Shown here piece after piece: positions 58,275-62,993 of a stretch of 64,000 nucleotides of DNA. How positions within the stretch are numbered: the stretch's first letter is position 1; the number at the start of each line of letters is the position of its first letter. A model generated the notes under the pieces. The model ran no database searches, was not told the origin of the DNA, and saw only the letters and a list, made by a program, of their open reading frames with translations. Origin of the DNA: Escherichia coli (GTDB lineage Bacteria > Pseudomonadota > Gammaproteobacteria > Enterobacterales > Enterobacteriaceae); NCBI RefSeq assembly GCF_041886205.1, contig NZ_CP169029.1. One strand, 5' to 3'. The translations under genes and the position numbers were made by a program.

Positions 58275-58934
58275 ATGAGCGAACAAATCACGTTTGCCAC
58301 CAGCGATTTTGCCAGTAACCCGGAACCACGTTGCCCCTGCATTCTGCTGCTGGATGTTTCTGGCTCGATGAGCGGCAGACCTATTAATGAACTTAACGCC
58401 GGATTGGTTACCTTTCGCGATGAGCTGCTTGCCGATCCGCTGGCCTTAAAAAGAGTGGAACTCGGTATTGTGACGTTCGGCCCGGTGCATGTGGAACAAC
58501 CCTTTACCAGCGCCGCTAATTTTTTCCCGCCCATCCTGTTTGCCCAGGGCGATACACCAATGGGGGCCGCCATTACCAAAGCCCTGGATATGGTTGAAGA
58601 GCGGAAACGTGAGTATCGTGCAAATGGTATTTCGTATTATCGCCCGTGGATTTTCCTGATCACCGATGGTGCACCAACCGATGAGTGGCAGGCTGCCGCC
58701 AACAAAGTGTTTCAGGGGGAAGAAGATAAGAAGTTTGCTTTCTTTTCCATTGGTGTTCAGGGGGCGGATATGAAGACGCTGGCACAAATCAGCGTTCGTC
58801 AGCCTTTGCCTCTGCAAGGATTACAATTCCGTGAACTGTTTAGCTGGTTATCCAGTTCGCTGCGTTCGGTTTCCCGCTCCACGCCGGGAACGGAAGTTGT
58901 GCTGGAAGCGCCAAAAGGCTGGACGTCAGTGTGA
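58275..58934 (+). CDS. yegL: von Willebrand factor A (vWA) domain protein
   Basis: MIDAS motif DVSGSMSG (DxSxS); 219 aa. Confidence 0.9.
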
Positions 58935-59692
58935 GCTGGCGTCTGGTTTATGCATCCGTTGTTGGAACGTCGCACATTAGCGCTGATTTACCTTGTCAGG
59001 ATGCCTGCCAGATGCAGGTTGCCTGGCTAAATGACCAGCAGCCATTATTGTCGGTATTTGTCGCTGATGGCGCAGGCAGTGTCTCGCAGGGTGGCGAAGG
59101 CGCGATGCTCGCCGTCAATGAAGCGATGGCTTATATGTCGCAAAAAGTGCAGGGTGGGGAATTGGGGCTTAATGATGTCCTCGCCACGGATATTGTACTG
59201 ACTATTCGTCAGCGACTTTTTGCCGAGGCGGAAGCCAAAGAATTAGCGGTTCGCGATTTTGCCTGCACATTTCTGGGACTGATTTCATCGCCTGACGGCA
59301 CCTTGATTATGCAGATTGGCGATGGCGGCGTGGTGGTGGATTTTGGTCACGGTCTGCAATTGCCGCTTACGCCGATGGTGGGTGAATATGCCAATATGAC
59401 GCATTTCATTAGCGATGAAGATGCTGTTTCCAGACTGGAAACTTTCACCAGCAATGAGCGTGCGCATAAAGTTGCAGCATTTACGGATGGTATTCAGCGA
59501 CTGGCGTTAAATATGCTGGATAATTCTCCGCATGTGCCTTTCTTTACCCCGTTTTTCAATGGACTGGCGGCAGCAACGCAGGAACAACTCGATTTATTAC
59601 CTGAATTGTTAAAGCAGTTTTTGTCCAGCCCGGCGGTAAACGAGCGTACCGATGATGATAAAACGTTGGCACTGGCGCTGTGGTTACCATGA
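58931..59692 (+). CDS. yegK: PP2C-like Ser/Thr protein phosphatase
   Basis: GTG start overlapping the yegL TGA (GTGA); PP2C-like motif [15 protein letters not shown]; 253 aa. Confidence 0.85.
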
Positions 59693-61629
59693 AACCCACT
59701 TTATATACTGCTACTGGTGAGTGCGTTACGCCAGGCCGTGAACTGGGCAAAGGTGGTGAAGGCGCGGTTTATGATATCGAGGAGTTTGTCGATAGCGTCG
59801 CCAAGATTTATCACACGCCGCCACCCGCCTTAAAACAGGACAAACTTGCCTTTATGGCTGCGACAGCTGACGCGCAGTTGTTGAATTATGTCGCCTGGCC
59901 GCAGGCAACGCTTCACGGTGGACGAGGCGGAAAAGTTATCGGTTTTATGATGCCAAAAGTTTCTGGTAAAGAACCGATTCATATGATCTATAGCCCGGCA
60001 CATCGTCGCCAGAGTTACCCTCATTGTGCGTGGGATTTTCTACTCTATGTTGCGCGCAATATTGCTTCATCTTTTGCTACGGTTCACGAGCACGGGCACG
60101 TCGTGGGTGACGTAAACCAGAACAGTTTTATGGTAGGTCGCGACAGCAAAGTGGTACTGATTGATAGCGACTCCTTTCAGATTAACGCCAATGGCACACT
60201 GCATTTATGCGAAGTCGGCGTGTCGCATTTTACGCCGCCAGAGCTACAAACCTTGTCGTCATTTGTCGGCTTTGAACGCACAGAAAATCACGATAATTTT
60301 GGCCTTGCGTTGCTGATTTTTCACGTCTTGTTTGGTGGCCGGCATCCTTATTCTGGTGTGCCGCTTATCTCTGATGCGGGTAATGCGCTGGAGACGGATA
60401 TTACCCATTTCCGTTATGCCTACGCGTCAGATAATCAGCGACGTGGTTTAAAACCGCCGCCACGATCGATTCCGCTATCGATGTTACCGAGTGATGTTGA
60501 AGCCATGTTTCAGCAGGCATTCACGGAAAGTGGCGTGGCAACCGGGCGTCCGACGGCTAAAGCGTGGGTAGCGGCACTTGATTCTCTGCGCCAACAGTTA
60601 AAGAAATGTCCCGTTTCGGCAATGCATGTTTATCCCGCTCATTTGACCGACTGCCCGTGGTGTGCGCTGGATAATCAAGGCGTTATCTATTTTATTGATC
60701 TCGGCGAAGAGGTCATTACCACCAGCGGTGATTTTGTGCTGGCGAAAGTCTGGGCGATGGTGATGGCGTCAGTAGCACCGCCAGCATTGCAATTGCCATT
60801 ACCCGATCATTTCCAACCGACTGGCAGGCCGCTTCCTTTAGGCCTGTTACGGCGCGAATACATCATTCTGATTGAGATCGCACTGTCAGCGTTATCGCTG
60901 TTGCTTTGCGGCCTTCAGGCAGAACCGCGTTATATTATTTTGGTTCCTGTGCTGTCGGCTATCTGGATTATTGGCAGTCTGACAAGCAAAGCGTACAAAG
61001 CAGAAGTTCAGCAACGCCGTGAGGCATTTAATCGCGCGAAAATGGACTATGACCATTTATTCAGCCAGATCCAACAGTTGGGCGGGCTGGAAGGTTTTAT
61101 CGCCAAACGGACGATGCTCGAAAAAATGAAGGACGAAATGCTCGGGTTACCGGAAGAAGAAAAACGTGCTCTGGCAGCACTTCACGACACCGCAAGGAAA
61201 CGGCAGAAGCAGAAGTTTCTGGAGGGATTTTTTATTGATGTTGCCTCTATTCCCGGCGTTGGCCCTGCGCGTAAAGCGGCGTTACGGTCCTTTGGTATTG
61301 AAACAGCAGCGGATGTTACCCGTCGTGGGGTTAAGCAAGTGAAAGGGTTTGGTGATCATCTGACCCAGGCAGTTATCGACTGGAAAGCAAGTTGCGAACG
61401 CCGTTTTGTGTTCAGGCCGAATGAAGCGGTAACGCCAGCAGACAGACAAGCGGTAATGGCGAAAATGACCGCCAAACGACATCGGCTGGAATCGACGTTG
61501 ACTGTCGACGCGACAGAGTTGCAGCGATTCCGCCTTCATGCTCCAGCACGGACCATGCCGTTGATGGAACCGTTACGTCAGGCGGCAGAAAAACTGGCTC
61601 AGGCGCAGGCTGATTTAAGCCGCTGCTGA
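59680..61629 (+). CDS. yegI: Ser/Thr protein kinase-like protein with C-terminal extension
   Basis: Kinase-like motifs GKGGEGAVY (glycine loop), HVVGDVNQNSFMV (catalytic loop) and IDSDSFQ (DFG-like). An alternative ATG at 59689 forms an ATGA overlap with the yegK stop. Confidence 0.85.
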   Translation: MVTMKPTLYTATGECVTPGRELGKGGEGAVYDIEEFVDSVAKIYHTPPPALKQDKLAFMAATADAQLLNYVAWPQATLHGGRGGKVIGFMMPKVSGKEPIHMIYSPAHRRQSYPHCAWDFLLYVARNIASSFATVHEHGHVVGDVNQNSFMVGRDSKVVLIDSDSFQINANGTLHLCEVGVSHFTPPELQTLSSFVGFERTENHDNFGLALLIFHVLFGGRHPYSGVPLISDAGNALETDITHFRYAYASDNQRRGLKPPPRSIPLSMLPSDVEAMFQQAFTESGVATGRPTAKAWVAALDSLRQQLKKCPVSAMHVYPAHLTDCPWCALDNQGVIYFIDLGEEVITTSGDFVLAKVWAMVMASVAPPALQLPLPDHFQPTGRPLPLGLLRREYIILIEIALSALSLLLCGLQAEPRYIILVPVLSAIWIIGSLTSKAYKAEVQQRREAFNRAKMDYDHLFSQIQQLGGLEGFIAKRTMLEKMKDEMLGLPEEEKRALAALHDTARKRQKQKFLEGFFIDVASIPGVGPARKAALRSFGIETAADVTRRGVKQVKGFGDHLTQAVIDWKASCERRFVFRPNEAVTPADRQAVMAKMTAKRHRLESTLTVDATELQRFRLHAPARTMPLMEPLRQAAEKLAQAQADLSRC

Positions 61630-61640
61630 GCCATTTTCTT

Positions 61641-62993
61641 TTAACGAAACACCACTTCCGCCCAGCGTGCCAGCCCGGCGGTGACGGAGCCAAAGTCATC
61701 GCCGCCTGCAATCGGAATTCCCGGCAACTGTTCTGCCAGCGCTTTTTTAATCAGCGGCGAACGGGCGCTACCGCCGGTCAGGTAGATAACGTCCGGTTTT
61801 TCCTGGGCGTTATCCAGGGCCAGTTGCACCTGTTCCAGAATCCGCGCCAGTGGCTGGCTGAGGGCGCTTTCCAGCCCTTGCTGGCTAATCAGCGTAGCCA
61901 GTTCATCGCTGATAAACGGCAGTGAGGCGCGGGTTTCCGCTACGCTTGAAAGAGCAATTTTGCACTCTTCTGCGCTACGCACCAGGCGATAGCTTAAACG
62001 CTGACGCCAGACTTTCTGTAGCAGGGCCACTTTTTCCGGTTCGCGGGCATCGCGTACCAGATCGTTAAGCAGACGACCGTTGGCACTACTGTAGAAATCA
62101 CTCTGCGCAGGTACGTCGTTGATGGCAACCGCATTCCACCACGGCAGAATCGGCAGGGCGATGCCTTTTTCGGTTTCGCCACCCATGCCCAGTAACGGCA
62201 TCAGGTTTTTAAACGCCAGTGCGATGTCCAGATCGTTACCGCCAATACGGCAACCACTGTGACCCAGCAGGCTGGCTTCACGATCGAGACGCGAACGCCA
62301 CTGCGGCCCCATCAGCAGCAATGAACAGTCAGTCGTACCACCGCCGATATCCACCACCAGCACCCGTTTTTCTTCCTGCAAGGTGGCTTCGTAATCCAGC
62401 CCAGCCGCGACCGGCTCGTACTGGAATACCACGTCCCTGAATCCGGCACGCTTCGCCGCGCGTTCCAGAATCCCTTGCGCCTGGGCGTTTGCTTCATCGC
62501 CGCCCAGCCCCTGGAAGTTGATCGGGCGACCAATCACCGCCTGAGTAATCGCTTCTGGCAGCTGCGCCTGCGCCTGCTGGCGAATGTGCAACATCATTGC
62601 GCAGACCAGATCCTCAAACAGCGCTACCTGCTGCGGTTTTAAGCCGCTGGCACCGAGGAACGATTTTGGTGATTTCACAAACCACACTTCTTCTGGATCA
62701 TCAATGTACTGTGCCAGTGAGGAAAGACCGAACTGCACGCTTTTCGCCGTAACATCGATATCTTCTTCGCGGTTATAACGAATCGCCCGACGTAACAGCG
62801 CCTGCGTTTCATCGTCGTCTGCCGGAACATCATGATGGCGGTACAGCCATTCACTTACTGCTTCACGCGTTGGCGCGCAAAGCATTGAAGGCAGCAGCGT
62901 GCTGTCGTTTTCCATTTTCAGTAATTGCGGTTTACCGTCACGCATGACCGCCACTGAACAGTTTGCTGTACCGTAATCAAAACCAATAAACAC
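61641..62993 (-). CDS. yegD: Hsp70/actin-fold ATPase family protein
   Basis: MFIGFDYGTANCSVAV (phosphate-1 motif) and DIGGGTTD; 450 aa. Confidence 0.9.
   Translation of the reverse strand: MFIGFDYGTANCSVAVMRDGKPQLLKMENDSTLLPSMLCAPTREAVSEWLYRHHDVPADDDETQALLRRAIRYNREEDIDVTAKSVQFGLSSLAQYIDDPEEVWFVKSPKSFLGASGLKPQQVALFEDLVCAMMLHIRQQAQAQLPEAITQAVIGRPINFQGLGGDEANAQAQGILERAAKRAGFRDVVFQYEPVAAGLDYEATLQEEKRVLVVDIGGGTTDCSLLLMGPQWRSRLDREASLLGHSGCRIGGNDLDIALAFKNLMPLLGMGGETEKGIALPILPWWNAVAINDVPAQSDFYSSANGRLLNDLVRDAREPEKVALLQKVWRQRLSYRLVRSAEECKIALSSVAETRASLPFISDELATLISQQGLESALSQPLARILEQVQLALDNAQEKPDVIYLTGGSARSPLIKKALAEQLPGIPIAGGDDFGSVTAGLARWAEVVFR

Follow-up and report, generated by a model that had tools for sequence, protein, structure and literature searches.

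Do the four adjacent genes yegL, yegK, yegI and yegD of Escherichia coli, which encode a von Willebrand factor A (vWA) protein, a PP2C-type phosphatase, a Ser/Thr kinase and an Hsp70-like protein, form one signalling module, and what might such a module do? Here we address this question for a 64,000-nt stretch of E. coli contig NZ_CP169029.1 (assembly GCF_041886205.1), hereafter the window, in which the four genes lie at positions 58275 to 62993. A preliminary description of the window had read the first three genes as a hard-wired unit completed by YegD. Our comparisons bring yegD out of the module: the conserved unit is exactly three genes, yegL, pphC (yegK) and yegI, and it is a horizontally acquired 3.4-kb insertion rather than a native signalling pathway. 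It is almost certainly a known, named operon of the already described TerY-P-type class. The operon, its enzymology and its architecture were known before; what we add is a census of the three-gene linkage, the exclusion of yegD, the insertion, the genomic context and the domains of YegI. The triad contains one of the few Hanks-type kinase/phosphatase pairs in E. coli.

The linkage of the three genes was assessed across relatives of YegI, a family with 3238 clusters (50% identity) at E<=1e-30, or 9685 representative clusters at the looser cut-off of E<=1e-3; most members are about 646 aa long and can be aligned over their full length down to 35% identity. Scanning one genome per species gave at least 568 encoding loci, and the 80 loci retained come from beta-, gamma-, alpha- and deltaproteobacteria, Actinobacteria, Firmicutes (among them Paenibacillus and Clostridiales), Planctomycetota, Acidobacteria, Synergistaceae and Methanoregula/Methanomicrobiales. 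Hidden Markov model searches of six-frame open reading frames (ORFs) found homologues of YegL, YegK and YegI together at 80 of 84 loci, the remaining four being cut by contig ends, which leaves 80 evaluable. At 78 of the 80 the genes are contiguous, on a single strand and in the order L-K-I. Of the two non-collinear loci, L023 is an artefact of a contig edge and L025 (Ca. Methylophosphatis) is a copy that insertions have broken up. In L025 (1626-16966) ~6.7 kb separates the yegL-like from the yegK-like gene and the kinase lies in pieces at 10001-11068 and 15854-16966, a break-up likely caused by mobile-element insertions. Both junctions are an overlap or a gap of at most 9 nt in all seven loci with gene calls. 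The proposal that the three genes are hard-wired therefore stands, and the co-occurrence data exclude the opposite case, that they are unlinked in other genomes.

The unit also ends with these three genes. Clustering the 2294 flanking ORFs of the 80 loci revealed no fourth conserved gene or effector, with no family present at more than 12 of the 80. The families that recur most there (a TetR regulator, an EttA-like ABC-F protein, LuxR-type regulators and histidine kinases) are either housekeeping genes or confined to particular lineages. Complete collinear triads were also seen in metagenome-assembled genomes of Methanoregula/Methanomicrobiales (L050, L052, L056, L059, L062, L063, L069 and L084), with YegI at 34-37% identity and its membrane hairpin and helix-hairpin-helix (HhH) region kept.

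The origin of the triad in E. coli can be read from its relatives. Salmonella enterica and Citrobacter freundii have the order dgcE-like gene, alkA, yegD, one ibs, mdtA-mdtB-mdtC, with no triad. Homology of the window with these genomes ends at about position 57120 and resumes at the yegD stop codon (61641), and the intervening ~4.5 kb of Escherichia-specific sequence consists of three extra ibs/sib units and the triad. Since alkA-yegD-ibs-mdtA is found there without the triad, the triad is a 3.4-kb insertion, acquired horizontally in the Escherichia lineage between yegD and the ibs/sib array. The nearest non-Escherichia YegI proteins, in a few Klebsiella strains and in Burkholderiales, are ~61% identical. 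YegD is 88-90% identical in Salmonella and Citrobacter and follows the enterobacterial phylogeny, and no yegD homologue occurs within 10 kb of the triad at any of 82 non-Escherichia loci, being present only at two Escherichia loci. On these comparisons yegD is an older resident gene outside the cassette, and its adjacency is a by-product of the insertion site.

Within E. coli itself the yegL-pphC-yegI locus is real and ordinary. Of 5426 complete E. coli genomes, 5423 were matched by a 5.5-kb query from the window, and 5386 contain at least 80% of the locus. RefSeq names the genes yegL (vWA domain protein), pphC (protein-Ser/Thr phosphatase), yegI (protein kinase) and yegD (molecular chaperone), followed by alkA. 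The features of the locus and its immediate neighbours are as follows (window coordinates, strand, description).

58264..58268, + strand: Shine-Dalgarno sequence AAGGA of yegL, 6 nt before the ATG, read from the sequence
58275..58934, + strand: yegL, 219 aa, cytoplasmic TerY-type vWA protein with a complete metal-ion-dependent adhesion site (MIDAS); Pfam VWA
58353..58367, + strand: DxSxS of the yegL MIDAS (D27-V-S29-G-S31); the other MIDAS residues are T94 and D131
58827..58889, + strand: conserved C-terminal motif of YegL, aa 185-205, from the homologue alignment
58931..58934, + strand: GTGA overlap of the yegK start (GTG) and the yegL stop (TGA); the junction reads ...TCA GTG TGA
58931..59692, + strand: pphC (yegK), 253 aa, GTG start, PP2C-family Ser/Thr phosphatase
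59689..59692, + strand: ATGA overlap of the yegI start (ATG) and the pphC stop (TGA); the junction reads ...CCATGAAA
59689..61629, + strand: yegI, whole gene, 646 aa
59689..60588, + strand: yegI kinase domain, aa 1-300, a divergent Hanks-type Ser/Thr kinase
60607..60663, + strand: putative CHCC zinc knuckle of yegI, C307-x5-H313-x8-C322-P-W-C325, from the homologue alignment
60853..60993, + strand: hydrophobic hairpin of yegI, aa 389-435, two-pass membrane anchor, from Kyte-Doolittle segments
61204..61401, + strand: (HhH)2-like region of yegI, aa 506-571, with two G-[IF]-G hairpins, from Pfam HHH_5, the alignment and the AlphaFold2 (AF2) model
61641..62993, - strand: yegD, 450 aa, Hsp70 nucleotide-binding-domain-like, convergent to yegI and outside the cassette
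57001..58128, - strand: four Sib antitoxin RNA units, with the ibs toxin genes on the + strand (Rfam RF00113, 132-142 bits)

ORFs, RefSeq names and Pfam matches agree with the identities and positions that the preliminary description had given to yegL, yegK, yegI and yegD, and both of the overlaps that it had noted are present: the GTG start of yegK lies at 58931 with the TGA stop of yegL at 58932-58934, and the pphC and yegI frames share the ATGA at 59689-59692. The ORF listing extends yegI upstream to an in-frame GTG at 59680, and the ATG at 59689 gives the 646-aa YegI that matches RefSeq. As read from the sequence, yegL alone in the operon has a good ribosome-binding site, so that translation of pphC and yegI is probably coupled to that of the gene upstream of each.

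YegL (Pfam VWA, E=1.6e-9) is predicted by AF2, with a pLDDT (predicted local distance difference test) score of 85, to adopt a MIDAS-type vWA fold whose nearest relatives are the anthrax toxin receptor CMG2, the A3 domain of von Willebrand factor and integrin I domains. The DVSGS motif recognised in the preliminary description occupies residues 27-31, and D27, S29, S31, T94 and D131 each show at least 95% conservation or full invariance among about 80 homologues. When compared with the ter cluster of an IncHI2 plasmid, which encodes TerY1, TerY-C and PP2C proteins, YegL is 32% identical to TerY1 (E 4e-27) and 29% identical to the "TerY-C metal binding" protein. Near its C-terminus lies the motif F-x(3)-F-x-W-L-S-x-S-[LM]-x-x-[VA]-S-x-S-x-P-G, with serines at S193, S195, S200 and S202, whose conservation reaches at least 95% across a range from E. 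coli to Methanoregula and which has a counterpart in TerY1 (FKWVSASI). In the AF2 model residues 185-200 lie on the last vWA helix, beyond which comes a tail of lower confidence. The equivalent last helix of integrin I domains relays open/closed changes of the MIDAS. Purely as a hypothesis, the C-terminal serines of YegL may be phospho-acceptors for YegI or belong to an allosteric element.

The phosphatase is well supported. PphC matches Pfam PP2C_2 with E=9e-52, D24, D46-G47, G130-D131-G132, D186-G187 and D242-D243 are invariant among 81 homologues, and the metal-coordinating aspartates of PP2C motifs I, II, VIII and XI are present. The family alignment suggests that D186-G187 is the "DG" of motif VIII, contrary to a 2018 paper in which this motif was scored as missing (10.1101/303594). 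The same work established PphC as a Mn2+-dependent PP2C whose D46N mutant is dead, and reported that autophosphorylated YegI is dephosphorylated by PphC, while PphC-D46N is phosphorylated by YegI (Rajagopalan, Nagle & Dworkin, J Bacteriol 2018; 10.1101/303594). Domain match, aspartates and published activity together confirm the PP2C-like character first assigned to yegK. Similarity to the PP2C protein encoded beside TerY in the ter cluster is weak but specific (E 4e-6).

The kinase is more divergent. E. coli YegI itself has no match to Pfam Pkinase, its sole Pfam match being HHH_5, and Pkinase matches 42 of 49 diverse homologues (E<=0.001). Its AF2 model (pLDDT 92.5; predicted template modelling score, pTM, 0.80) superimposes on PknB, BRAF and Aurora B with template modelling (TM) scores of 0.65-0.73. 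Among the 49 homologues G22, E24, K39, D141, N143, D159, D161, S162, E185, D202 and R287 are invariant, and a GxGGEG Gly-rich loop (G20-G25), Q164, the PPE that contains E185, and R287-P-T-A-x-x-W293 are also conserved. The motifs are atypical, with VGD in place of HRD, DSD in place of DFG and no conserved alphaC glutamate. R287 is suggested by the family alignment to be the arginine of kinase subdomain XI, contrary to the 2020 YegI paper, which scored it as absent (10.1101/819920). The E. coli protein is also an atypical member of its own family, reading GDVNQNS where the consensus is GDVNQGN. Searches of solved structures with single sequences found nothing for YegL and YegK and only marginal matches for YegI, the best being NleH1 (E=0.028), and the YegI family profile retrieved generic kinase domains only.

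YegI is nonetheless an active, Mn2+-preferring Ser/Thr kinase whose K39D and D141N mutants are dead (Rajagopalan & Dworkin, FEBS Lett 2020; 10.1101/819920). Its activity needs the DSD loop and S153/S160/S162, and it is activated by autophosphorylation of these activation-loop serines (10.1101/819920). Invariant catalytic residues, the kinase fold and this activity bear out the kinase motifs seen at first reading. The assays that the preliminary description had proposed for YegI and PphC were thus already in print, with both enzymes active in vitro (10.1101/303594; 10.1101/819920), and together with the invariant catalytic residues they exclude a pseudo-kinase or pseudo-phosphatase.

Beyond the kinase domain YegI carries three further elements. 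Directly past it, C307, H313, C322 and C325 are invariant in the 49 homologues (33-50% identity), a CHCC pattern that probably binds zinc. Two adjacent hydrophobic segments follow at aa 389-412 and 413-435 (Kyte-Doolittle), where the preliminary description had placed one within a long C-terminal extension, and a hydrophobic block of about 40-45 aa stands at the equivalent place in 48 of the 49 homologues, followed by coiled coils. PhoA-LacZ topology defined YegI as a two-pass inner-membrane protein with both termini cytoplasmic (10.1101/819920). Lastly, HHH_5 matches aa 515-550 with E=0.0025, and matches the homologues in 19 of 49 cases at E<=0.1, one of them at E<=0.001. L511, G525, L532, S534, G536, I537, A540, D542, G553 and G555 are conserved here, G536-I537 and G553-x-G555 among them, and in the AF2 model the helices of the region have pLDDT >90 and a long C-terminal helix then runs to aa 645. 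From this pattern we predict that the (HhH)2-like region binds DNA.

With these assignments the class of the operon is clear. The TerY-P triad, as presented in PMC11090510 and PMC4978471, consists of a vWA protein, a PP2C and a kinase and was defined by Anantharaman, Iyer & Aravind in 2012. It has been proposed to act as a phosphorylation switch tied to DNA-restriction systems (PMC11090510, PMC4978471), and a related TerY-P module is a stand-alone antiphage system against T7-like phages (PMC7699616, PMC11090510, 10.1101/2022.08.12.503731). The yegL operon shows each part of this architecture: a TerY-like vWA protein whose MIDAS is intact, a PP2C and a kinase in the same operon, and linkage that holds over great evolutionary distances. 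An E. coli IncHI2 plasmid examined for comparison (pCFS3273-1, L091) has, at 8995-18378, the canonical ter-cluster order TerY1-TerX-TerY2-TerY3(TerY-C)-PP2C followed directly by ISApl1-mcr-1-PAP2-ISApl1. The mcr-1 colistin-resistance transposon thus stands where the kinase gene of the triad would be expected and apparently lies at or in that gene.

The neighbours of the triad elsewhere speak to its possible role. Among seven Pfam-annotated non-Escherichia neighbourhoods, known defence genes lie within 10 kb of the triad in six.

L001, Piscinibacter: BrxR/WYL, JetB, ScoMcrA-N/NOV_C, SLFN-type helicase, MazG-like, SNase
L002, Chromobacterium: AbiH and KAP NTPase upstream; Tn7-like TnsA/TnsB/TniB/TniQ ~4 kb downstream
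L003, Klebsiella: GmrSD, type I restriction-modification, SymE
L086, Georgenia: McrB-McrC just upstream
L087, P. alcaligenes: Gabija-like ATPase/OLD-TOPRIM and UvrD pair directly upstream; CD-NTase/Cap15 of a cyclic-oligonucleotide-based antiphage signalling system (CBASS) downstream
L088, Paenibacillus: Mrr and SLFN_AlbA_2
L085, Chromatium: HicA toxin and DNA methylase only

Triad homologues also reside on megaplasmids of Pseudomonas (including pQBR103), Cupriavidus and Ralstonia and on rhizobial plasmids. A search of phage genomes returned one weak partial kinase match only, and from this near-absence we take the cassette not to be phage-borne. No ter genes were present near the triad in the loci examined. 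In these loci the cassette is, as a rule, found among defence genes and on mobile elements, the association that the preliminary description had put forward for checking.

At the E. coli site the triad borders an array of type I toxin-antitoxin units. Four Sib units, in tandem and ~328 nt apart, occupy this site in the window, compared with two in K-12, which agrees with the expanded array first noted there; the array ends 147 nt before yegL (Rfam), and Salmonella and Citrobacter keep one unit. In many E. coli genomes the match to our query fell into two parts, with ~328 bases extra, a pattern suggestive of strain-to-strain variation in ibs/Sib copy number. The array is a neighbour that marks the insertion site and not a part of the cassette. 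It also coincides with a change in divergence from K-12: mdtA and mdtB are 100% and 99.8% identical (dS 0.006; window 52368-56884), whereas yegL, pphC, yegI, yegD and alkA are 95-98% identical (dS 0.05-0.15; window 58275-63975), a contrast that indicates a recombination or haplotype break inside the array. Ratios of non-synonymous to synonymous divergence (dN/dS) against the K-12 haplotype, at 0.05 for yegL, 0.17 for pphC and 0.18 for yegI, point to purifying selection on the triad genes. An insertion of yegJ between pphC and yegI is confined to K-12 strains (10.1101/819920); the window has the uninterrupted form. In K-12 MG1655 (L090, 8186-8647) yegJ, which encodes a DUF2314 protein, replaces the ATGA junction and alters the C-terminus of PphC and the N-terminus of YegI. 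According to a 2026 paper, overproduced YegJ is toxic, and the protein binds RNase E and induces yegD (PMC13232886).

What, then, is the cassette for? The best overall explanation, which we hold with somewhat better than even confidence, is an acquired TerY-P-type phosphorylation switch used in biological conflict. YegL would act as MIDAS adaptor or sensor, PphC as reset enzyme and YegI as a membrane-tethered, probably DNA-binding kinase. In such a scheme PphC would hold YegI off until a trigger is sensed through the YegL MIDAS, or through DNA bound at the membrane by the HhH/zinc-knuckle part of YegI, or both. The trigger would permit trans-autophosphorylation of YegI, and the active kinase would phosphorylate targets, one candidate being the serine-rich last helix of YegL. 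Overproduced YegL (with a strong effect) and YegI (at least 5-fold) each raised endogenous DNA damage in a genome-wide screen (10.1101/354589), which is compatible with a DNA-directed activity without proving one. Taken by itself, a conflict or defence role of yegLKI, whether antiphage, anti-mobile-element or a related stress response, is in our judgement evenly balanced. More tentatively, YegL-PphC-YegI may represent a very large TerY-P branch missed by defence models, a stand-alone immune sensor in which the zinc-knuckle/(HhH)2 part of YegI would detect foreign DNA at the inner membrane, the MIDAS and serine helix of YegL would form a phospho-regulated adaptor and PphC would be the off-switch.

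Several observations weigh against a conflict switch. The context evidence is guilt by association from those seven neighbourhoods, a small sample rather than a statistical enrichment test, and it is unusual for a defence system to be carried by 5386 of 5426 genomes. The literature searched reports no experiment tying yegLKI to phage resistance or any phenotype. Expression of the yegI locus was very low in all conditions tried (10.1101/819920, PMC13232886), and the locus has no convincing sigma-70 promoter, its four consensus-like sites being at chance level (4.6 expected), a lack that fits the reported near-silence; terminator-like sites are also at chance level (nine against 6.8 expected). 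K-12 tolerates the disruption of the pphC-yegI junction by yegJ. The HhH match of E. coli YegI itself is weak, and its binding of DNA and zinc is a prediction from sequence features. Finally, the family is a branch distinct from the experimentally validated TerY-P. With the PADLOC TerY-P models YegL scores only as TerY at E=0.013, YegK has no match and YegI matches generic kinase models only; membership of the PADLOC/Gao et al. TerY-P subfamily is rejected on this failure of the profiles. The same models also missed the Pseudomonas and Paenibacillus homologues and the canonical ter-cluster TerY and PP2C used as controls. They are therefore narrow, and the negative excludes the Gao subfamily only, not the TerY-P architecture.

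The strongest competitor to a conflict switch, though a rather unlikely one, is a housekeeping stress switch in which the vWA MIDAS senses a metal, envelope or stationary-phase cue, along the lines suggested for TerY under tellurite/metal stress, and YegI/PphC adjust host physiology through the phosphorylation of host enzymes. Such a role would suit a locus carried by 99% of E. coli genomes under purifying selection, the homology of YegL to TerY of the ter operon and the preference of both enzymes for Mn2+, and TerY-P systems were first read as metal-sensing phosphorylation switches (cited in PMC11090510). It sits poorly with a patchy distribution that resembles horizontal gene transfer, with 60% identity between E. 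coli and Burkholderiales and no triad in Salmonella or Citrobacter, and with carriage on megaplasmids and, at one locus, beside Tn7-like transposition genes; the neighbours are repeatedly defence genes, not genes of metabolism or metal handling, and the loci examined have no ter genes nearby. A regulator of DNA damage or processing, in which a membrane-anchored HhH kinase monitors or modifies chromosomal DNA with YegL as a Ku/vWA-like adaptor, would account for the (HhH)2-like region and zinc knuckle of YegI, the two hits in the DNA-damage screen and the presence of alkA two genes away. We nevertheless regard it as improbable, since the alkA-yegD adjacency is older than the triad, which makes that link positional, raised DNA damage after overproduction is indirect as a phenotype and common to ~200 unrelated proteins, and no repair genes recur beside the triad in other genomes.

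Two further readings have still less to commend them. That the cassette is a silenced or decaying remnant of an old acquisition would agree with expression that is very low or undetectable (10.1101/819920; PMC13232886), with the lack of a clear promoter, with the yegJ disruption in K-12 and with E. coli YegI being the most atypical member of its family, with no Pfam Pkinase match and an N146S change; three intact reading frames, dN/dS of 0.05-0.18 at dS of ~0.11-0.15, the retention of all catalytic residues, activity of both enzymes in vitro and near-universal presence make it very unlikely. Least probable of all, to the point of being scarcely tenable, is the four-part module with which we began, in which the Hsp70/actin-fold ATPase YegD (Hsp70 nucleotide-binding-domain matches; NCBIfam NF008673, E=4e-244) is a partner or output of the triad. 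The stop codons of the convergent yegI and yegD are only 11 nt apart (61629-61641), a gap with no space for separate terminators, and the two genes were named as an overlapping-transcript ('excludon') pair in an RNA-seq survey (PMC12288877); overexpression of K-12 yegJ induces yegD (PMC13232886), and some CoCoNuT systems contain both Hsp70-like domains and TerY-P triads (PMC11090510). Against this stand the 82 non-Escherichia loci at which no yegD homologue accompanies the triad and the vertical inheritance of YegD, which stands beside ibs-mdtA without the triad in Salmonella and Citrobacter; the idea that YegD completes the module is thus not upheld.

The triad can be compared with known systems. 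Like the PknB-PstP, PrkC-PrpC and PpkA-PppA pairs, the triad joins a kinase and a PP2C in one operon and combines activation-loop autophosphorylation with reset by the phosphatase. It differs in that YegI has no extracytoplasmic sensor (PASTA or similar) and has both termini in the cytoplasm, in its VGD and DSD motifs and missing alphaC glutamate, and in the obligatory vWA partner. With PD-T4-6 it shares the idea of defence by phosphorylation; however, PD-T4-6 is a single-protein kinase with neither vWA nor PP2C, and its likeness to YegI is that of a generic catalytic core, the YegI kinase core matching the PD-T4-6 models weakly (E 2e-4; Pseudomonas homologue 7e-7). Stk2 of Staphylococcus is likewise a single-protein kinase-based antiphage system.

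Comparison with other TerY-P systems is closer. The TerY-P of Gao et al. 2020, represented in PADLOC and tested in P. aeruginosa by Costa et al., is also an autonomous three-gene module of vWA, PP2C and kinase, and its kinase carries a C-terminal domain of nucleic-acid-binding type, as YegI putatively does, but that kinase reportedly ends in an oligonucleotide/oligosaccharide-binding (OB) fold (PMC11090510) where YegI ends in a membrane hairpin and HhH region. The TerY-P modules of CoCoNuT systems (PMC11090510) share a zinc-binding element, putative in YegI, after the kinase and McrBC-type or other defence neighbourhoods, as in Georgenia (L086). There, however, the triad is an accessory of a large superoperon, whereas it stands alone at all 80 loci studied here. 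With the TerY-P triad as originally described, yegLKI has in common three components in one operon, the homology of YegL and TerY1 including the F-x-W-[LV]-S-x-S motif, and the association with restriction and defence genes. It departs from it in a kinase that carries a CHCC knuckle, two-pass hairpin, coiled coil and (HhH)2, and from the ter-cluster form, in which the vWA is fused to TerY-C and the PP2C is long (545 aa), also in being without nearby ter genes and fixed in the E. coli core genome. Almost every E. coli strain, then, carries a TerY-P-type cassette that PADLOC defence models do not recognise.

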